A stretch of 64,000 bases of DNA from Alphaproteobacteria bacterium (GTDB lineage Bacteria; Pseudomonadota; Alphaproteobacteria; Bin95). Positions 9,486-63,777 of the stretch are shown piece by piece (the stretch's first letter is position 1; the number at the start of each line of letters is the position of its first letter). The notes below the pieces were generated by a model that was given only the letters and a program-made list of their open reading frames with translations, ran no database searches and was not told the origin of the DNA. Location of the stretch: positions 704,001-768,000 of the forward strand of contig OZ219788.1 of NCBI GenBank assembly GCA_964291285.2, written 5' to 3'. A program made the translations under genes and the position numbers.

Positions 9486-9694
9486 TGCCGTGAAAATTGT
9501 TGGGGATCGGGCGCACAAAAACCCCTCCCCGCCAAAGCACTGCTTCCGAGGCGTCCGATACTCGCCATCTGCGGCGCCCGTCTTGCGGATCGTGATCGGT
9601 AGGCAACCCCGTACAAGCCCGAAGTCCCGCCCGCGCGGCCGGCACCTGTTTTCATGATACGGGGTGGCCGACCCGCCCGGCAATGAAGGTTTTG
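9486..9694 (-). repeat. 207-bp non-coding cassette, copy 1
   Basis: Reverse complement closely matches the 206-bp units at 63288-63701, with a few substitutions and one extra base. Confidence 0.9.
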
Positions 9695-10878
9695 GGCAAG
9701 TCTCGACAGGCGAGGGCAGCTCCATTTAAGGCCGCCGCGATTCTCGCCCCGACGCGCTCTGCGGCGTCCTCGACCTCATGGTCGCCGACATGCGCGTATC
9801 GCAGTGTCATTGTCGGCTGCGCATGACCGAGCATCCGGGCGACGGTCGGCAGCGGCACGCCGCTGGCCACGGCCTGGCTCGCCACCGTATGGCGCAGGTC
9901 ATGCAGGCGCACATCCTCGATCCCCGCCTCCCGCCTTGCCAGGAGCCAGAGGCCGAGATTGCGGGACCGCGGCCTTTCCGGGTCTCCGGGCGAGGGAAAC
10001 ACGAAGGCGCTTCCGTTTCTCGGCTGGCGTGCGATGACGGCCTGCGCCGCCCCGCTCAGCCATACCGTGCGCGGCCCCGTCTTGGCCCCGGCCAGTCTAA
10101 GCACGTCTCCATCGACCTCCGACCATCCGAGCTTCAGGATTTCGCTTTTTCGGCAGCCGGTCAGCAGCAGCAGGCGGATGATGTCGGCCTGCGGGCGGCG
10201 CGAGGGCCGTTCCCGCACCAGCCGGTCCAGGGTACGGTGAAGCTGGGCGATCTCTTCTACGGACAGGAACCGGGTCATCTTCCGGCCCGGGTTCGGCCTG
10301 ACGCCGGCGGCAGGATCGGTGCCGACATGGCCGGCGGCCCTGGCGGCGGTCACGATCTGGCGCAGCACGGCGAGCGTCTTGTTGGCCGCGCCCGGCGTCT
10401 TGCGGCTCATGTTGTCGAACCAGCGCTCGACATGGGGCCTGGCGATGCAGTCGAGGCGAAGCGCCCCGAAGGCGGGCAGAAGCCGGCGCCGGACCACATG
10501 CTCCACGCGCTCGCCCCATTTAGGGCTGCAATGGCCCCGGCGCGCCGGCAGCCAGTCCTGCATGACGAAATCCCGGAAGAGGGGAACGGCAGTCCGGGAA
10601 GCCGGATCTGCGGCGCAGAGCGGATGCGAGCCGTCCAGCAGGGCCCGGCATGCGACCCGTGCTTCCTCCACCGTCATCAGCGCGGCCGCGCCGATGGTCG
10701 TCCGCACCATCCTGCCGTTCACGGTCCCGTGCCACACGAAACCGCGATGCCCGGAAGGCCGGACCCGCACGCCCAGACCGGCAACCCGAATGTCCCTGAC
10801 GATGTATTCGATGCTGCCGGGCCTCAATCTTGCGACGCCTGCATCCGTCAGGCGGACCTTCCTTGCCCTGCCCGTCAT
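9652..10878 (-). CDS. Tyrosine integrase (arm-binding, P4-like), copy B
   Basis: N-terminal arm domain (GLGVRVRPSG); catalytic TGCRKSE, AKTG, LHDLRH, LGH, TLRY. Confidence 0.92.
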   Translation of the reverse strand: MTGRARKVRLTDAGVARLRPGSIEYIVRDIRVAGLGVRVRPSGHRGFVWHGTVNGRMVRTTIGAAALMTVEEARVACRALLDGSHPLCAADPASRTAVPLFRDFVMQDWLPARRGHCSPKWGERVEHVVRRRLLPAFGALRLDCIARPHVERWFDNMSRKTPGAANKTLAVLRQIVTAARAAGHVGTDPAAGVRPNPGRKMTRFLSVEEIAQLHRTLDRLVRERPSRRPQADIIRLLLLTGCRKSEILKLGWSEVDGDVLRLAGAKTGPRTVWLSGAAQAVIARQPRNGSAFVFPSPGDPERPRSRNLGLWLLARREAGIEDVRLHDLRHTVASQAVASGVPLPTVARMLGHAQPTMTLRYAHVGDHEVEDAAERVGARIAAALNGAALACRDLPKTFIAGRVGHPVS

Positions 10879-12002
10879 GACCGCGCTCCCGAGAGCAGCG
10901 GCGCCAGCGCCTCGACCGTCTCCCTGACCGTCGCGTCGGAGAGATGCGCGTATTTCAGCGTGGTCGCCGCCTTCTCATGGCCCAGCAGCCGGCCCACCGT
11001 GCGGATCGTCTCGCCGCCCGACAGCGCCATGCTGGCGTAGCTGTGGCGCATGTCATGCAGGCGCATGTCCTCAAGGCCCGCCTCGGCGCGCAACTGCATC
11101 CAGAAGGCGTCAAGCCAGCTCCATGGCGTGCGCCGGCCTGCGATGGGGAACACGAAGCGCGACGAACGCGGCAGCCCGTCGAGGACCTCCCGCGCCGCCT
11201 TGCAAAGCCAGACCGTGCGGGGACCGGTTTTGGAATCAGCCAGGTAGAGCCTGCCATCGCGGTAGAAGCGCCATTCCAGGGTGACGATCTCCGACTTGCG
11301 GCAGCCGGTCAGCAGAAGCAGGCGGAGCGCCGCGACCCGGAAGGGCTGCCGGGCCTCATGGCGGTTCAGCGCCATGCCGAGGCGGCGGTATTCCTCGGGC
11401 GACAGGAAGCGCTCCGACCGCTTCTGCCGGTAGGGCCGGATGCCCTTGCAGGGATTGCCGCCATCGGTGCGGTATCCCCAGGCCTCGGCCTGCTGCATGA
11501 TGACGGACAGGATCGGCGCCGACCGGTTCGCCGCCGCCGGCACCGCATGGAGCGAGCGGAACCAGCGCTGCACCTCCTCGCGGTCGATGTCGGCGACAGG
11601 GCGGTCCGCGAAGAAGGGCAGGATCTGGTTGTGGAGATAGCAGCGGTTGACGGCGAGCGTGCGCGGCTTCCAGCGCCTGCCGTAGCGGGAGAAGACCTCT
11701 TCGGCGACGGTCTCGAACAGCGCGTCGCCGGACGCTTCGGCTTCGATGTCCCTGTCGTCGCGGAGAGCGGCGAGCATGGACCGGGCGCGGGCGCGCGCCT
11801 CGGCCTCGGTCATGACCGCCGCGTCGCCGACGATCTTCCAGACCCGGTGGCCGCGGTGCTGGCTGTGGATGAAATAGCGCTTCCTGCCCGAGGGCATGAC
11901 GCGCACGCCGTAGCCCTTCAGTCCGGCGTCCCGGACATTGCGGACGGACTTGCGGGGCCGGAGGGTATCGACCCGGCGCTGGGTGAGGCGGATGGCTGCC
12001 AC
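10875..12002 (-). CDS. Tyrosine integrase (arm-binding, P4-like), copy A
   Basis: GTG 12002 after GGGGAG; GYGVRVMPSG; TGCRKSE, SKTG, LHDMRH, LGH, TLKY; ATGA overlap with copy B. Confidence 0.92.
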   Translation of the reverse strand: MAAIRLTQRRVDTLRPRKSVRNVRDAGLKGYGVRVMPSGRKRYFIHSQHRGHRVWKIVGDAAVMTEAEARARARSMLAALRDDRDIEAEASGDALFETVAEEVFSRYGRRWKPRTLAVNRCYLHNQILPFFADRPVADIDREEVQRWFRSLHAVPAAANRSAPILSVIMQQAEAWGYRTDGGNPCKGIRPYRQKRSERFLSPEEYRRLGMALNRHEARQPFRVAALRLLLLTGCRKSEIVTLEWRFYRDGRLYLADSKTGPRTVWLCKAAREVLDGLPRSSRFVFPIAGRRTPWSWLDAFWMQLRAEAGLEDMRLHDMRHSYASMALSGGETIRTVGRLLGHEKAATTLKYAHLSDATVRETVEALAPLLSGARS

Positions 12003-14081: not shown

Positions 14082-14114
14082 TTGCGTCCGTAACAGGATC
14101 GGGAGGATTTTATC

Positions 14115-16418
14115 ATGGCTATCGAGCGGACCGGCGGCGCTGGCGACGACACCCTGACGGGGGGCGTCGGCAATGACATCCTGAAGGGCGGCCTCGGCGA
14201 CGACATCCTGACGGGCGGCGACGGCGACGACACGCTGACCGGCGGAACCGCAAGCGCGGGAGCCGACGCGGACTTTCTCCTCATGAACCCCGGCAGCTCG
14301 GACGATGACACGCTGGACGGCGGCGCGGGGAACGATGTGCTGGACGGCGGCGCGGGCGATGACACGCTGGACGGCGGCACGGGCAACGACACGCTGTATG
14401 GCGGCGACGGGGACGACACGGTGGATGGCGGTGCGGGCAACGACCGTCTGGAAGGCGGCCGGGGCGCTGACAGGCTGACCGGCGGCCGGGGCGCTGACTC
14501 GCTCTATGGCGGCAGTGGCCATGACGTCTTTGCGTTCGCGGTCGGCGACGGGGCCGATTACATCGGCGATTTCGAGGCTGGCGACATCATCGAGATTGCC
14601 GGGGTGCCGGGCGGTTTCGGGGATCTTGTGATCGAGCAGAAGGGCTTCAATACCGTCATCAGCTACGGCGACGGCGACACGATCAAGCTGGAGGGCGTGA
14701 CGGCGGCCTCCCTTGGCGCGGACGACTTCCGGTTCCTTCCCGTCGAGGCAGCCCCGCCGGAGGGCGGCGGCGAGGACGCTCCTGCACAGGGTGCGCCGCC
14801 GGACGGCAACGATGACGGCGACAGCGACGATGATGACTTGAGCGGCGGGTCCGCCGGCGGGACGGTGCTCACGGGCGGCAATCGCGCGAACACGCTGACC
14901 GGAGGCGAAGGCGACGATCTCCTGAGGGGCCGCAAGGGCGACGACACGCTGGACGGCGGCGCGGGCGACGACAGGCTGGGGGGCGGGCGCGGCGCCGACA
15001 CGCTGACGGGCGGGGCTGGCGCCGACACGCTGACCGGCGGCCGCGGCGCCGATACCTTCGTGTTCGAGGCGGGAGACGGCGCCGACATCATTACCGACTT
15101 CGGGGCCGGCGACAGGATTCGCCTCGACGGCATATCCGGCGGGTTCACGGCGCTGGTCATCGAGCAGGACGGCGCCGATACCGTCATTCGCTACGGCGGC
15201 GGCGGCGACACGATCAGGCTATCGGGCGTGTCGGCAGACAGCCTGGATGCGAACGACTTCATCCTGCCTGCTGGCGGTGGCGGCGACGAAAAGGCCGCTT
15301 ACGGCGCCAGTACGAGCGACGACGACAACGACGGTGGCGACCCCCTTGACGACGACAACGACGGCGGCGAGGACACGATCCCGGGCAACTCGGGCGATGG
15401 GACGCTCGATGTCGAGAACACTGGGGACGGCGGCGGCGACTCGGACGCCGGGGGAGACGACGACGACGACAGCTGCAATGACCAGGGCGAGCTTCCTCGC
15501 ATCGTCGGTCAGGGCCAGACCGGATACGGCATACTCCACGGCACCGAGGACTCGGAGTTCATCTACGGCGGTGCCGGATGGACTTGGGACACGCTCTACG
15601 GCCACGGCGGCCATGACACGATGGCAGGCGGCTACGGCCGCGACGTGCTGGTCGGCGGCAAGGGCAACGACTGGCTTCGCGGCGACTGGGGGGGATGGGT
15701 CTACGGCGACACCTACATTTTCAATCCGGGCGACGGCTTCGACTACCTGTACGAGCTGAGAAAGGAGGACACGATCGAGTTTCACTTCGGCGATCAAGAC
15801 ATGGGTCCCTTCCGGTTCGCCGATCACCAGGCGCTCTACTCCATGGACGCGGTCATCGTCTACGGCGATGGTGGCACGTCGGACGGCACCATCCTCTCGC
15901 ACACCGGCTGGGCCTGCCAGCTGCAGGTGAACGGCGGCGCGGGCGGCGGAACCGTCCGGATTGGCGACATGTCGCTGGCCGAGTTCAAGGCCTCCGGGAT
16001 CGGCTTCACCGTCCGGGGCGGTAACGGCGACAATACGCTCCACGGCGCCTTCGGCCGGGACATCCTCCAGGGCCTCGGGGGCGACGACACGCTCCACGGC
16101 CACGATCGGGACGACCGGCTTTCGGGGGGGACGGGCGACGACACGTTGATCGGGGGCAAGGGTAACGACCTGCTACACGGCGGCGCCGGCGCCGATCGAT
16201 TCGTCTTCGACAGCGAGTCCGAGACCGACCGCATCCTGGACTTCGAGGACGGCACCGACATCCTGGTTATCCGTGGGAAGCTCCAATTCTCCGATCTGGA
16301 CATCAAGCAGAGCGGACACAACGCCGTGATCGGCGATCCCGACAACACATTCTCGATCGTGGTCGAGAACATTCAGGCGTCGCAGCTGACCGAGGCCGAT
16401 TTCGACTTCGTCGGCTGA
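14115..16418 (+). CDS. RTX / hemolysin-type Ca-binding repeat protein 1 (probable T1SS substrate)
   Basis: Many GGxGxDxL nonapeptides, duplicated 'D.I.DF..GD.I' modules, Asp-rich linkers, C-terminal ADFDF. Confidence 0.92.
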   Translation: MAIERTGGAGDDTLTGGVGNDILKGGLGDDILTGGDGDDTLTGGTASAGADADFLLMNPGSSDDDTLDGGAGNDVLDGGAGDDTLDGGTGNDTLYGGDGDDTVDGGAGNDRLEGGRGADRLTGGRGADSLYGGSGHDVFAFAVGDGADYIGDFEAGDIIEIAGVPGGFGDLVIEQKGFNTVISYGDGDTIKLEGVTAASLGADDFRFLPVEAAPPEGGGEDAPAQGAPPDGNDDGDSDDDDLSGGSAGGTVLTGGNRANTLTGGEGDDLLRGRKGDDTLDGGAGDDRLGGGRGADTLTGGAGADTLTGGRGADTFVFEAGDGADIITDFGAGDRIRLDGISGGFTALVIEQDGADTVIRYGGGGDTIRLSGVSADSLDANDFILPAGGGGDEKAAYGASTSDDDNDGGDPLDDDNDGGEDTIPGNSGDGTLDVENTGDGGGDSDAGGDDDDDSCNDQGELPRIVGQGQTGYGILHGTEDSEFIYGGAGWTWDTLYGHGGHDTMAGGYGRDVLVGGKGNDWLRGDWGGWVYGDTYIFNPGDGFDYLYELRKEDTIEFHFGDQDMGPFRFADHQALYSMDAVIVYGDGGTSDGTILSHTGWACQLQVNGGAGGGTVRIGDMSLAEFKASGIGFTVRGGNGDNTLHGAFGRDILQGLGGDDTLHGHDRDDRLSGGTGDDTLIGGKGNDLLHGGAGADRFVFDSESETDRILDFEDGTDILVIRGKLQFSDLDIKQSGHNAVIGDPDNTFSIVVENIQASQLTEADFDFVG

Positions 16419-19284: not shown

Positions 19285-21329
19285 ATGACTGGTTCAAGGA
19301 TTCCGGCGGCGGCAGCATCGCGGACGGCAACGGCGGGCACGACTATCTCGAAGGCGGCAATGGGCTGAACATCCTGCGCGGCGGCTGGGGCAACGACATC
19401 CTGGTCGGGAACCAGAAGGACCAGATCTCCGACCGCCTCCATGGCGGGTCCGGGAACGACTTCCTGATCGCGGGCAAGCTCAAGGCGAGCAACCGGCAGG
19501 ACGACGGCACCGGCGCGCTGACCGACGCGACGCGTGGGCGGGGACCGATCTCCAACCAAGCCGGGGATCCGCAGGGAAGCCTCCTCCATGGCGGCCATGG
19601 GGGCGACCATTTCATCCTCAACCCCGACAGCTATGTCTATATCGAGGATTTCCGGCATTGGCACGACTACATCTACGTGACCGGGATCCGGGACGGGGCG
19701 GAGCTCACCATTGTCCACCACCCCGACGGCCACTACGGGAAGGCCCACTTTCGGATCATGCTCGGCAACAAGGTACTCGCCGAGCTCAAGTTCGAGGAGG
19801 AAGTCAATCCCGATGACGCCGAAGCCGTGAGGGTGGCGAAAGGGAAGATTGACGAGTTCCTGGAGACCGCGAGCGGGGACTGGATCAACGGCGACCATAA
19901 TGACAACACCATTCGGGGCACCGCGCATTCCGACCATATCTACGGCCACGGCGGCGAAGACACGCTCACGGGCGGCGCGGGAGACGACGCTCTCGTCGGC
20001 GGCCAAGGCAACGATGTCCTTCGCGGCGAGGACGGCAACGACAGGCTGCAAGGCGGCCGCGGCAACGACACGCTTTGGGGCGGCGCGGGCATGGACTCGC
20101 TGGACGGCGATGGCGGCAACGACCTGCTCTACGGCGGCGGCGGCGACGACGGGCTCTACGGCGGCGACGGCCACGACAGGCTCGATGGCGGCGCCGGCTG
20201 GGACGTGCTCTACGGCGGCGACGGCCGGGACATCTTCGTGATCAGCGAGGGCCGGAGCAGCGACGGGCGCGCTGGCACCATCGGGGACTTCAATGTCAAG
20301 GAGGACTACATCCGGTTGCCGTTCAACGTTTCGTGGGACGATGTCCGGTTTGTCCGGGGCCCGGAGGGGCCCGGGCCGACCACGCACCTTGTCACCGGCA
20401 CCGGCGACTCGCAGAAGGTGCTGGCCCGGTTCGACGAATTCGAGGATCTCACTGCCCAGCAGCTGCAGGAGCTCAAGAACAAGGTCGAGTTCATCTGGGA
20501 CTTCGACCCGAACAAGGAGTATCCGGACCCGCAGGCCGGGAAGACGCTCACGGGCACGAACAGGAAGGACCTGCTCGTCGGCGACAGCGGCAACGACATC
20601 ATCAAGGGTCTGGACGCGTTTGACGTGCTCTACGGGCGCGGCGGCGACGACAGGCTCTTCGGCGGCAATGGCAAGGACACGCTGTATGGCGGCAGCGGCA
20701 GCGACTCGCTGTTCGGGGATGGCAACAACGACATCCTCCACGGCGGCGCCGACGGCGACACGCTGAACGGCGGGGACGGCGCCGACCGGCTGTATGGCGA
20801 AGGCGGCGACGACACGCTGAACGGCGACAATGGCGACGACATGCTGTATGCCGGCGTCGGCAGCGACATGCTGGACGGCGGGAACGGCAACGACCGCCTG
20901 GAAGGCGGCGAGGGCGGTCTCGACGTGCTGGCCGGCGGCGCGGGCGAAGACCGGCTGTTCGGCAACGGCGGCAACGACCGTCTGGAGGGCGGCGAGGGCT
21001 CCGACCGTCTGCGCGGCGGCGAGGGCGCCGACGAGTTCCTGTTCCGCGCCGGCGACGGTGTGGACGTCATCGCCGACTTCGAGGACGGGACCGACACGAT
21101 CGTCTTTCTGGCCCAGACCTGGGCGAATGCCGGGACCGACACGAAGTTCCTTTCGTTCTCCGACCTGGTGCTGACCGACAGCGAGGAGGCGGGCGGCGTG
21201 GTCATCACCTCGGACAAGCTCGCAGGCAACGAGATCATCGTCAGGGGCGTGACGTCCGAGATGCTGACGGCCGACGACTTCGGCTTCCTGACGGTCGATC
21301 AGTACAACGAACACCTCGACATCGGCTGA
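19284..21329 (+). pseudogene. RTX Ca-binding repeat protein 2, 5'-truncated by IS1380
   Basis: Frame is open from the IS border (DDWFKDSGGG...GGHDYLEGGNG...) into ORF 19677-21329, with many nonapeptides and ADDFGF near the C-terminus. Confidence 0.85.
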
Positions 21330-61194: not shown

Positions 61195-61353
61195 GGAGAT
61201 ACGCCCGTTTCCTCGTTAATTTTTGCCTGCGGGCCGGTTATGGCTTGTCGAAGTCCGCGACACAACCGGTCAAGTCAGGGCGAATTAATTGTCTGCCTTT
61301 GGGCCATGTTGAGGTGGGGTCCGGGGTGGCTATTTTTTTCTTGATATGGCAGT

Positions 61354-63150
61354 GTGCCGGTCATGGCGAGGTTTCTGTTTGCGGGTGTTTGGGTTGATCT
61401 TCGCGCGGTCACGGTGCGCCCGACCTGGGGGGCACGGGAGCACCGGCGCTGGGACGATTTGGTAGCGGCGCACCACTATCTGCGGTTCCACGGCATCATC
61501 GGCAAGGGTCTGCGCCATGTCGCGGTTCATGGCGAGGCCTGGCTTGCCCTGGTTGGCTGGCAGCCTGGAGCGTTCAAGGTGGGAGCGCGGGACCGCTGGA
61601 TCGGGTGGTCGGCGGAGCAGCAGTTCCGTCGCCTGCATCTGGTTGCCAACAACTCGCGCTTTGTCATCCTGACGCCTGAGCGGGTTCCCAACCTTGCCTC
61701 GCGGGTGCTGGGGCTGAGCGTGCGGCGGCTGTCGCAGGACCTGCGGGCGGCGCATGGCTATCCGGCTGTTGTGGCGGAGACGTTTGTGGACGTCTCGCGC
61801 TTCGCCGGCACCTGCTACCGCGCGGCCAACTGGCGCTCTTTGGGTCTGACGCGCGGCTTTGCCCGCGAGCCCGGAGGGGTGGCGCGCTGGCGTCACCACG
61901 GCCAGCCCAAGGAGGTCTTCGTGTTCGAACTGACACACGGCGCCCCCGAGGCGCTGAGCCATCCCGAGATACCGGCAGACTGGAACGCTGAGCAGCACAC
62001 CGAGCCGATGGCGGCGCCCCGGCTGCGCAGCCTGTTCGAGTGTTTGGGCGAGGTGCCCGAATACCGCCATGCCCGGGGCAAGCGCTATGCGCTCACCACC
62101 ATTCTGACGCTGGCCGTTGCCGCCCGGCTTGCCGGATACCGGGGTGTGAACGCCTTCGCCCAGTTCGCCGCCCTGCTCTCCCAGAAGCAACTCAAGGCGG
62201 TGGGCGCCTTCTGGAGCCCATCCAGGCAGTGCTACACGCCGCCGGCGGTCACCACCTTCCACAACATCCTCGCCGCCCTGCCGCCACAGACCCTGGACAA
62301 TGCCATCGGCCAGTGGGCCGGACAGCACAGCAGTGCGCACGCGCCTGTGGCCATGGACGGAAAGGATTTGCGCGGTGCCTCGAAGCAGAGCGAAGACCGG
62401 CGCAGGAGGATGGTCGCTGCGGTGGCGCATGACACCGGCGTGGTCCTCGGGCAGGTCGAAGTCAGCTCCAAAAGCAACGAAATCCCGGCCGTGCGCGAAC
62501 TCTCCAGCGGTCTCGACCTCACAGGCCGGATCGTCACCATCGATGCGATGCACGCCCAGCACGAGACCGCGCGTTGCCTGCTCGAACGCCGTGCCGACTA
62601 CGTGGTCAGCGCGGTGAAGGGCAACCAGCAGACCATCCTCGAAGACCTCAAGGCGATCGACTTCAGCGATGCGCCCTGGCACGAAACCGTCGACAAGGGC
62701 CATGGTCGCATTGAGCGCCGACGCTGCGCCGTCGTCGACCTCTGCGCTGCCGAGTGGGACGGCTACGCCCACCTTCACGGGCGCCGCCAGGCAATGCGCA
62801 TGGAACGCGAGCGCAAGATGCTCAAAACCGGCAAGCGCAGCATCGAGGTCACCTGGAGCCTGACGTCGCTTGGCGCAGAGCGAGCCGGCCCCAAGGAGCT
62901 TCTCGATCTGGTGCGCAACCACTGGCACATTGAGAACCGTGTGCACTATGTGCGTGACTTCACCTATGACGAAGACCGTTGCCGGGCATATGTGCGCCAC
63001 CTGCCCGGAAATCTGGCCTGCTTGAGCAACGCGGCCATCGCTATCGTGCGCTGCGACGGACGCTTCCGATATGTACCCGAGGCCAACCGGCACTACGCCG
63101 CCCGCGCCCAAGAGGCCCTCGACGCGATTATGATCGCGCCCAGAGGCTGA
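61354..63150 (+). CDS. DUF4338 - ISAs1 transposase fusion (start approximate)
   Basis: N-terminal HHYL, RDRWIGW, NNSRF, NLASRVL, ETFVD, GTCYRAANW; C-terminal AMDGK, KSNEIP, TIDAMHAQ, VKGNQ, HGRIE, RNHWHIEN..H..RD..ED. Confidence 0.92.
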   Translation: MPVMARFLFAGVWVDLRAVTVRPTWGAREHRRWDDLVAAHHYLRFHGIIGKGLRHVAVHGEAWLALVGWQPGAFKVGARDRWIGWSAEQQFRRLHLVANNSRFVILTPERVPNLASRVLGLSVRRLSQDLRAAHGYPAVVAETFVDVSRFAGTCYRAANWRSLGLTRGFAREPGGVARWRHHGQPKEVFVFELTHGAPEALSHPEIPADWNAEQHTEPMAAPRLRSLFECLGEVPEYRHARGKRYALTTILTLAVAARLAGYRGVNAFAQFAALLSQKQLKAVGAFWSPSRQCYTPPAVTTFHNILAALPPQTLDNAIGQWAGQHSSAHAPVAMDGKDLRGASKQSEDRRRRMVAAVAHDTGVVLGQVEVSSKSNEIPAVRELSSGLDLTGRIVTIDAMHAQHETARCLLERRADYVVSAVKGNQQTILEDLKAIDFSDAPWHETVDKGHGRIERRRCAVVDLCAAEWDGYAHLHGRRQAMRMERERKMLKTGKRSIEVTWSLTSLGAERAGPKELLDLVRNHWHIENRVHYVRDFTYDEDRCRAYVRHLPGNLACLSNAAIAIVRCDGRFRYVPEANRHYAARAQEALDAIMIAPRG

Positions 63151-63287
63151 TACCCCACCCCCCACCGCAATACAGGCTCGGGCCGAAGAACGGCGCAGCA
63201 AAACAACTGCGCCCGTCGAGGACGAAAACACTGGACCGCGGCATCAAGAAACCACCATGACGGCGGCCAGAAACGTCTGGGGTTCCC

Positions 63288-63701
63288 CAAAACCTTCATT
63301 GTCGGGCGGGTCGGCCACCCCGTATCATGAAAACAGGTGCCGGCCGCGCGGGCGGGACTTCGGGCTTTTACGGGGTTGCCTACCGGTCAGGGTCCGCAAG
63401 ACGGGCGCCGCAGATGGCGAGTATCGGACGCCTCGGGAGCAGTGCTTTGGCGGGGAGGTTTTTTTTGCGCCCGATCCCCAACAATTTTCACGGCAAAACC
63501 TTCATTGTCGGGCGGGTCGGCCACCCCGTATCATGAAAACAGGTGCCGGCCGCGCGGGCGGGACTTCGGGCTTTTACGGGGTTGCCTACCGGTCAGGGTC
63601 CGCAAGACGGGCGCCGCAGATGGCGAGTATCGGACGCCTCGGGAGCAGTGCTTTGGCGGGGAGGTTTTTTTTGCGCCCGATCCCCAACAATTTTCACGGC
63701 A
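63288..63701 (+). repeat. Tandem dimer of the 206-bp cassette (copies 2 and 3)
   Basis: CA cores at 63288, 63494 and 63700; the two units read identical. Confidence 0.92.
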
Positions 63702-63777
63702 AACACCGGCAGCCAGACCGACATCACTCAGACAAAGCCCGCGGTTCGACTAAAAATTTTCCCTGCCGGTCAAGTCC

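Follow-up and report, generated by a model that had tools for sequence, protein, structure and literature searches.

The 206-bp repeat that stands in tandem near the end of the window, i.e., the whole stretch of 64,000 nucleotides of an alphaproteobacterial genome which was analyzed here, is probably a non-autonomous derivative or hitch-hiker, of about 205 bp, of an insertion sequence (IS) of the IS110 family relying on a bridge RNA, whose machinery it would use in trans. Since this unit carries both ends of the IS110-family transposon, it has most likely been copied and inserted by the enzyme and the guide RNA of that transposon. A non-autonomous cassette moved in trans by a site-specific and possibly RNA-guided recombinase had been proposed in a preliminary description of this DNA, and it is now supported by the shared IS110 ends, by a tandem of IS and unit (locus L174) and by the covariation of guide and flanks. 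The features of the window involved are the following:

61276–63765, plus strand: host ISAs1-type IS, 2490 bp, with the dimer 66 bp from its right end
61354–63147, plus strand: open reading frame (ORF) of the ISAs1-type IS, with the domains DDE_Tnp_1_assoc and DDE_Tnp_1
63288–63493, plus strand: unit 1 of the tandem dimer (206-bp period), 100% identical to unit 2
63494–63699, plus strand: unit 2 of the tandem dimer, 100% identical to unit 1
63291–63340 (unit 1) and 63497–63546 (unit 2), plus strand: left-end module, homologous to the left end of the IS110-family parent
63299–63328, with a second copy at 63505–63534, plus strand: promoter-like TTGTCG-N18-TATCAT (9/12 matches)
63341–63470, plus strand: conserved non-coding interior, putative small RNA
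63485–63496 (unit 1) and 63691–63702 (unit 2), plus strand: right terminus TTTTCACGGCAA
9485–9694, minus strand: third copy, solitary, unit with CAA junction, 95–96% identical to the dimer units

The three copies of the repeat, a tandem pair and a single copy on the minus strand (9488–9694), had been recognized from the window itself. The single copy differs from the dimer units at nine positions, and a blastn search extended to the whole genome of the window (G000; 6.13 Mb in five contigs) returned 39 matches in about 17 flank contexts. Every one of the 100%-identical units of G000 is borne by an IS; independent copies show 2–18 pairwise differences, and two copies located in separate host repeats are a mere two positions apart. 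Further dimers, of which one is a heterodimer of two subfamilies, were met at a second site of G000 and in two more assemblies. The number of A at the dimer junction is four in G000 and three in loci L041 and L043. One short-read contig from a public run corresponds to the empty form, with a skip of 411 and a 4-nt ambiguity; because the short-read contigs are short and break inside the repeat, the dimer is neither confirmed nor refuted by the reads.

One side of the solitary copy is the end of an 11-copy repeat, with an adjacent coding sequence in which an IS630-like motif was read by eye, and its other side is a region of diverged paralogous repeats. There, direct repeats (D5, D8) with a spacing of about 1150 nt and 70–78% identity extend over 9781–11326, a layout that suggests tandem paralogous genes, and the adjacent 300 nt have 43 diverged matches in G000; we suspect that these paralogues are putative tyrosine recombinase genes. 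Two long inverted-repeat pairs of the window, 3123–3267/8032–8176 (145 nt, 96%, bracketing about 4.8 kb) and 17325–17582/19027–19284 (258 nt, 96%, bracketing about 1.4 kb), probably delimit other mobile elements. Repeats of 27 nt (9 codons) rich in glycine and aspartate (families D1–D3) form dense arrays at 14100–16200 and 19300–21050, presumably as in RTX-type calcium-binding proteins.

The preliminary description had placed the dimer in the 3′ non-coding part of an ISAs1 element. This location was borne out by comparison with the other copies of the host: among the 12 ISAs1-type copies of G000, eight contain a dimer, one a monomer and three are empty, with the sequence GGGGTTCCCCAAAAC/ACCGG at the insertion point (here and below, a slash marks a border). 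The ORF of this IS has its own peculiarity, as residues 36–169, ahead of the DDE domains, match the Druantia DruA family (E = 2e-19; numbering from the long ORF 61354–63147, the start codon being putative). Diverged units are found in a comparable situation in genome G057 (e.g., L255–L282), where at least 41 copies are each separated by 16 nt from the end of another multi-copy repeat. In the 14 copies that were examined, the left flank and the first 16 nt on the right agree except for single-base differences, so that these copies are embedded in one larger repeat, as with the ISAs1-type IS. This makes G057 the second instance, after the ISAs1-type IS, in which another element has amplified the unit passively.

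Within the sampled family, the unit was found in the genus of the window alone, in 4 of 16 other genomes of this genus (G001, G008, G010 and G012) and in none of 20 genomes across two sister genera. An exact-pattern scan of species-representative genomes returned 12 loci in six records, and diverged units were found in G054, G056 and G057. Pattern scans of metagenome contigs and of viral contigs gave no match in either set, nor did a distant blastn search of a plasmid collection with the unit. The neighborhoods of solitary copies in the four relatives and in two other assemblies contain housekeeping genes or assorted IS and no linked recombinase. A TnpB-like fragment located 1.1 kb from one G001 copy was set aside, an unrelated gene lying in between.

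The borders of the unit are well defined. The 37 G000 matches extending to the right end all have ...TTTTCACGG/CAA there, after which the sequence varies, while left borders in G000 consist of variable sequence, CA, one to three A, C and then NNN-CATTG. Comparison with the empty IS copies gives GGGGTTCCC/CAAAAC-CTTCATTG for the left junction of unit 1. Filled and empty forms can be paired at three sites, located in the ISAs1-type IS (three empty copies), in a 5-copy repeat (three empty copies) and in a 29-copy repeat (25 empty copies); the insertions are of the CA/AA type, with overlaps of AAAC, AAA and AA (4, 3 and 2 nt). Borders at CAA with a CA core, as initially described, are thus retained as far as the CAA is concerned, while from the paired sequences the crossover would be most simply described as AA within CA/AA. 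The net gain is 205 bp per monomer and 411 bp per dimer relative to the empty IS copies, both being hand counts from printed sequences and 411 also the skip length in one short-read contig. One A is therefore unaccounted for, as the monomer adds 205 bp yet the dimer has a period of 206, and 411 bp cannot be obtained from two precise insertions into the empty site as it was observed.

At the ends of the unit and in the three filled/empty pairs, no terminal inverted repeats above shuffles and no target duplication were found. An inverted repeat centered on the CA of the unit–unit junction, which had been pointed out as a sign of junction symmetry, scores 16, well within the range of shuffles (mean 13.0, sd 2.4, maximum 26), and no comparable one exists in the copies of G001, G008 and G012. 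The flanks of many G000 copies are themselves other IS, and several pairs of left and right flanks are chimeric, implying that rearrangements followed some insertions and that some sites are obscured. On the right, flanks show no consensus past AA; on the left, the bases before the A-run at 13 G000 sites are CC (8/13), AC (4/13) or GC (1/13). In G010 the target is well delimited, its five copies all occupying, as does the single G008 copy, the same position of a genus-specific repeated motif, CATGACA/AAACATGACA; the G012 copy lies inside a variant of it (CATGACATAC). Allowing at most one mismatch, this motif occurs 108 times in G000, 99 in G012, 76 in G010, eight in G008 and not in G001 (reversed control, 0). 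With its CATGACA heptamers at 11-nt spacing (CATGACAAAACATGACATYYCATGACA), it is a REP-like or iteron-like repeat, found, e.g., at C1:518392–518439 of G000.

The anatomy of the unit links it to a longer element. With the IS110-family parent it shares some 50 bp at the left, where the promoter-like box lies, and 11–12 bp at the right. In an alignment of six unit and six full-length IS lineages, the left end has 22 invariant columns and a mean column identity of 74%. The box TTGYCG-N18-TATCAT which the preliminary description had noted at the start of each unit is indeed present once per unit (two TTGTCG-N18-TATCAT sites against 0.1 expected in shuffles); in relatives its -10 hexamer is kept as TATNNT, with variation confined to positions 4–5, and the left end of the full-length IS carries an equivalent box. 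At the other extremity, the terminal heptanucleotide ACGGCAA is invariant in nine of nine aligned sequences, and what unit and parent have in common there is the last 11–12 nt alone (TTTNNACGGCAA), the sequence upstream being different.

Between these ends lies the best-conserved part of the unit across lineages, with 92% identity between G000 and G010 over 115 nt. Single-nucleotide indels in relatives, which break a 69-codon frame, exclude that it is coding, and the 206 bp contain no recombinase gene. In Rfam 15 the best match of the unit reaches 17.3 bits for a gathering score of 42, and the parent IS has no match either. No RNA run with the sequence of the unit turned up. Compared with the 5′ non-coding region of the parent, the interior scores 18–21, the shuffle means being 18–19, in all seven comparisons, and the longest antisense match between unit and parent (9 nt) is equalled by 168 of 200 shuffles. 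The foldable transcript that had been proposed found no support above controls: the single-sequence fold has a z score of +1.7, an equal or better fold being obtained for 194 of 200 shuffles, and the consensus structures of a narrow and a wide alignment disagree (covariation terms of -0.22 and -0.34 kcal/mol). As for structural covariation, four of 38 pairs change on both sides in the narrow alignment, a number reached by six of 500 shuffles for a structure derived from the same alignment. The suggested T-tract terminator likewise lacks support, as the unit has no terminator-like site and T8 is confined to the IS-borne copies, the others having GGGGTTTTGTG.

A longer element with the ends of the unit and enclosing a recombinase, which the preliminary description had recommended looking for, does exist in the form of an IS110-family IS with the same left end and right terminus. 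Among the 14 matches to PF01548 in G000, the fourteenth (C2:1200272-) is a piece of this partner recombinase. About 330 nt upstream of its start, the sequence ...TCGCC/AAAACCTTCATGGTC...CCCCGTTTGATGAAACAGG aligns with the left end of the unit. Its reading frame is interrupted at about residue 295 by another IS, and it is the only piece in G000 with the N-terminal domain; C-terminal recombinase fragments are present on C4 and C5, the former ending ...AATCTGTTTCACGGCAA/AACTGCGG. A short-word blast search of G000 for longer elements with unit ends returned IS-interrupted units only. G000 hence holds the parent only as broken pieces, and it is intact and multi-copy in other genomes. In total, 110 relatives of the recombinase were found, of which 79 loci were kept (61–97% amino acid identity), with up to about 36 copies per record. 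The intact element at L187 is 1739 bp long and encodes a 415-residue protein with the domains PF01548 (DEDD_Tnp_IS110) and PF02371 (Transposase_20); the long non-coding region of the parent precedes the recombinase gene. In the different lineages, the left end has the form AAC-NN-TCATGGTC...CCACCCCGTrGCATGAAAC and the right end GTTTCACGGCAA, the right end of the unit being likewise TTTCACGGCAA.

Parent and unit also meet physically. At L174, the right end of the IS directly abuts a unit (GTTTCACGGCAA/ACGTCCATTG...), with a second unit 29 nt beyond, and the same genome (G053) contains the intact copy L187 and further units. Tandems of the parent itself are represented by four full-length copies whose left flank is the right end of another copy and by several copies having a left end as right flank. 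PF01548 has no match in G001 and G008, and no close relative of the recombinase was found in G001, G008, G010 and G012 (best 30%, in G010); the units of these four genomes may be relics.

Two other IS110-family elements, the abundant ones of G000 (13 copies) and of G010 (seven copies), were considered as partners and rejected, their ends and non-coding regions being unrelated to the unit. That of G000 is 1133 bp long (e.g., C1:260073–261205), has the ends ACCTTGTATCTC...CAGTCGCTCTCC and is inserted in GC-rich repeated sequences (...GCGGACR/GTCGGYT); in three copies its first 65–80 bp have been split off by other insertions. That of G010 includes three copies in a row, with spacings of 1859 and 1836 bp (G010:C2:1364269–1368695).

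The 5′ non-coding region of the parent contains ...CCCGA, a string N5-AAAC and then TGCTTCCGG, where N5-AAAC has the sense of the left target flank followed by AAAC. The left end together with this guide segment was located in 59 of the 79 loci, with nine distinct guide strings. The suffix match between a guide and its cognate flank is 7.22 nt on average (4 nt in one locus, 5 in one, 6 in 11, 7 in 18, 8 in 27 and 9 in one), compared to 4.55 nt for non-cognate pairs (n = 472), the shared AAAC setting a baseline of 4 nt; per lineage, medians are 6–9 nt for cognate and 4–6 nt for non-cognate pairs. The IS piece of G000 follows this pattern, its guide GACGCCAAAAC matching its own flank ...CGCCAAAAC over 9 nt. 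The left target guide of IS621 is described as having the same orientation, i.e., the sense of the top strand (PMC11208160).

The insertion sites of the units can be read against these guides. G000 units with a 4-A junction (s1, s5, s12, s13 and s14) match guides over 7–8 nt, and the CC and AC found before the A-run correspond to the guide types ...GCC-AAAAC and ...GAC-AAAAC. The G010 (5/5) and G008 copies, inserted at CATGAC-AAAC, are to be compared with the L179-type guide GATGAC-AAAAC and match it only with an A-run one base shorter; for unit lineages that are one A short at their left end, the simple suffix match is 4 unless the A-run may differ by one. On the donor side, the non-coding region of the parent contains GCGCGGCAAAAC, in the sense of the right end plus core, and nearby GCCGTG, complementary to CACGGC; both are candidate donor guides, read in the sequence of one element. 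The segment which covaries with the flanks is located in the parent IS rather than in the unit, where the preliminary description had sought the guide; the internal guide GGGGTTGCCTA proposed there is not supported, the G010 units having no 6-mer match to their well-defined target. According to a preprint, insertion can be driven by a half-match of the bridge RNA (10.64898/2026.08.31.748434), which may bear on the uninformative right flanks of the units.

What the sequences show are ends common to unit and parent, empty sites, tandems and a guide that covaries with the flank, whereas we infer mobilization in trans, a circular intermediate, transcription of the interior and any action of the resulting RNA. 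The unit would have retained about 50 bp of the parent left end, which takes in the promoter-like box and the very beginning of the parent's non-coding RNA, together with the right terminus (TTTCACGGCAA), around some 130 bp of non-coding interior foreign to the parent. The parent recombinase, loaded with the parent bridge RNA, would take the ends of the unit as donor, and the unit would be copied or excised as a small circle with the junction ...CACGGCAAA(A)C-CTTCATTG. This circle would then enter sites whose left side matches the parent target guide (...GCC-AA or ...GAC-AA), and a crossover in AA would leave CA/AA-type borders without target duplication or terminal inverted repeats. Since the right end of the unit, CGGCAA, is one base off CGCCAA, new copies would tend to land behind resident ones, producing head-to-tail dimers, IS–unit tandems and IS–IS tandems. 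The dimer of the window would have landed in the 3′ non-coding region of the ISAs1-type IS, which has multiplied it passively thereafter. With no intact parent in G000 today, the units are probably stranded there, bar the ride on the ISAs1-type IS.

What the interior itself does is a separate matter. An RNA that acts on the bridge recombinase as a decoy or as an alternative guide scaffold, diverting the enzyme or tuning the parent, seems to us unlikely; if true, it would parasitize or regulate an RNA-guided transposon at the level of RNA, and its retention across lineages with differing ends and targets would reflect selection on the RNA. Improbable too is that the unit encodes a bridge or seek RNA of its own, the interior being a diverged guide RNA that programs the parent recombinase for the donor and the targets of the unit. 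In its favor, the promoter-like box and the bases presumably transcribed first have their homologues ahead of the parent non-coding RNA, the interior has the size of a bridge RNA (about 160 nt) besides being so well conserved, and two of its words, TTTTACGG and GTTGCC, are similar to the right end and to the complement of GGCAAC. However, this interior has no significant similarity to the parent 5′ non-coding region in any of the seven comparisons, the segment matching the flanks sits in the parent and not in the unit, and the TTGCC/TAGCC position does not covary with the unit ends. Two bridge or seekRNA loops with target and donor guides were sought in the unit alignments and not found. The missing 6-mer match in G010 points in the same direction, as do the pairs changing on both sides, which are few (4/38), come from a structure built on the same alignment and give way to a different consensus in the wider one.

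The use of the parent enzyme and guide in trans was also weighed against readings in which another machinery, or none, moves the unit. The short target word, the lack of target duplication and of terminal inverted repeats, and the variable A-run at the left junction would suit a single-strand HUH element of the IS200/IS605 or IS91 type, inserting 3′ of a CAAA-like word and forming tandems by rolling-circle read-through. This is hardly credible and close to refuted, as Y1_Tnp and Y2_Tnp have no match in G000 (1 and 3 of 17 genus genomes, respectively, are positive), G000 has no match to the TnpB zinc ribbon, and both ends of the unit belong to an IS110-family IS. An IS607-like serine transposase or a large serine recombinase using AA as crossover dinucleotide has next to no probability either, although the IS607 family is described as devoid of inverted repeats and target duplications, with exchange over 2 bp of identity (PMC6188088), and G000 has nine Resolvase-domain matches. 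In the two small ones checked, the domain is N-terminal by ORF coordinates, like in ordinary resolvases. A large serine recombinase of 773 residues lies in segments of more than 14 kb, not in a small IS (four G000 copies, 95–98% identity: C2:459527–473928, C3:1900455–1914847, C2:1–11965 and C5:11551–27905). In the neighborhoods examined, none of the units has a serine recombinase gene linked to it; this reading is close to refuted as well. Finally, the repeat might have no mobility of its own and be an assembly artefact or a mere piece of the ISAs1-type IS: every 100%-identical copy is inside an ISAs1-type IS, the 14 G057 copies examined (of at least 41) are inside one larger repeat, and the dimer of the window rests on the assembly, the short-read contigs breaking in the repeat. 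Against this stand the three ISAs1-type copies without the unit, solitary copies in many contexts, two of them with empty sites, and the further dimers, among them the heterodimer, of a second G000 site and of two more assemblies. As far as mobility in general is concerned, this reading is already refuted.

Bridge recombinases are under development as programmable genome editors, and to our knowledge little is known of their natural behavior beyond autonomous IS. The family described here represents a natural donor-only element, present in several genomes, that appears to use the enzyme and the guide of its parent in trans, and it shows how a near-match of its own end to the guide yields tandem arrays. 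It has further been amplified second-hand inside unrelated IS, with eight dimers in G000 and at least 41 embedded copies in G057. These units thus offer natural test cases for donor requirements, for the tolerance of guides (one-base shifts of the A-run, matching of the left half) and possibly for interference at the RNA level, the conserved interior being a small-RNA candidate.

Several known systems are reminiscent of this unit. Like the classical miniature inverted-repeat elements (MITEs) of bacteria, it is short, non-autonomous, multi-copy and often located in intergenic regions or in other IS; unlike them, it has neither terminal inverted repeats nor target-site duplication, and its interior, not its ends, is most conserved. 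With the IS1111 group, the system shares site-specific insertion, a circular intermediate (a postulated one here) and RNA guidance, in the terms in which these are described for that group (PMC11187229). The hallmark of this group, subterminal inverted repeats of 11–13 bp with 7- and 3-bp extensions (PMC11187229), has no counterpart here, where subterminal repeats stay within shuffles and the non-coding region of the parent is upstream, not downstream, of the recombinase gene. The parent IS is closer to IS621, with which it shares the DEDD and Transposase_20 domains, a 5′ non-coding region, a left guide in the sense of the top strand and a dinucleotide-type crossover and, as far as the account of IS621 goes, the lack of inverted repeats and duplication (PMC11208160). 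For IS621-type bridge RNA, function in trans has been reported, a donor of 22 bp being enough (PMC11208160). Unlike IS621, the unit is a natural donor-only element; it lacks a recombinase gene and, to the extent tested, bridge-RNA loops as well.

Among documented cases, the one that comes closest is the ssr9 module of ISPpu9, an IS110-family element of Pseudomonas putida KT2440; this module was the sole comparable case found in a literature search for non-autonomous or miniature IS110 elements with bridge RNA (PMC12288879). The circles of ssr9 are reported to depend on the transposase of ISPpu9, and the module is read by its authors as a selfish element that exploits the transposase of the IS (PMC12288879). 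In the features described for ssr9, the two are alike: both are small modules that bear a non-coding RNA (a putative one in the unit) and no transposase, are flanked by copies of IS ends, occur directly behind the IS as well as alone, and recombine at a dinucleotide. Complementarity or leader similarity of the unit to its parent was sought and none exceeded shuffles, and its circles are postulated. What sets the unit apart from ssr9 is its different IS110 lineage and host, the 50 bp or so of left end with the promoter-like box of the parent RNA, the homo- and heterodimers, the occurrence in many genomes and the secondary amplification inside other IS.
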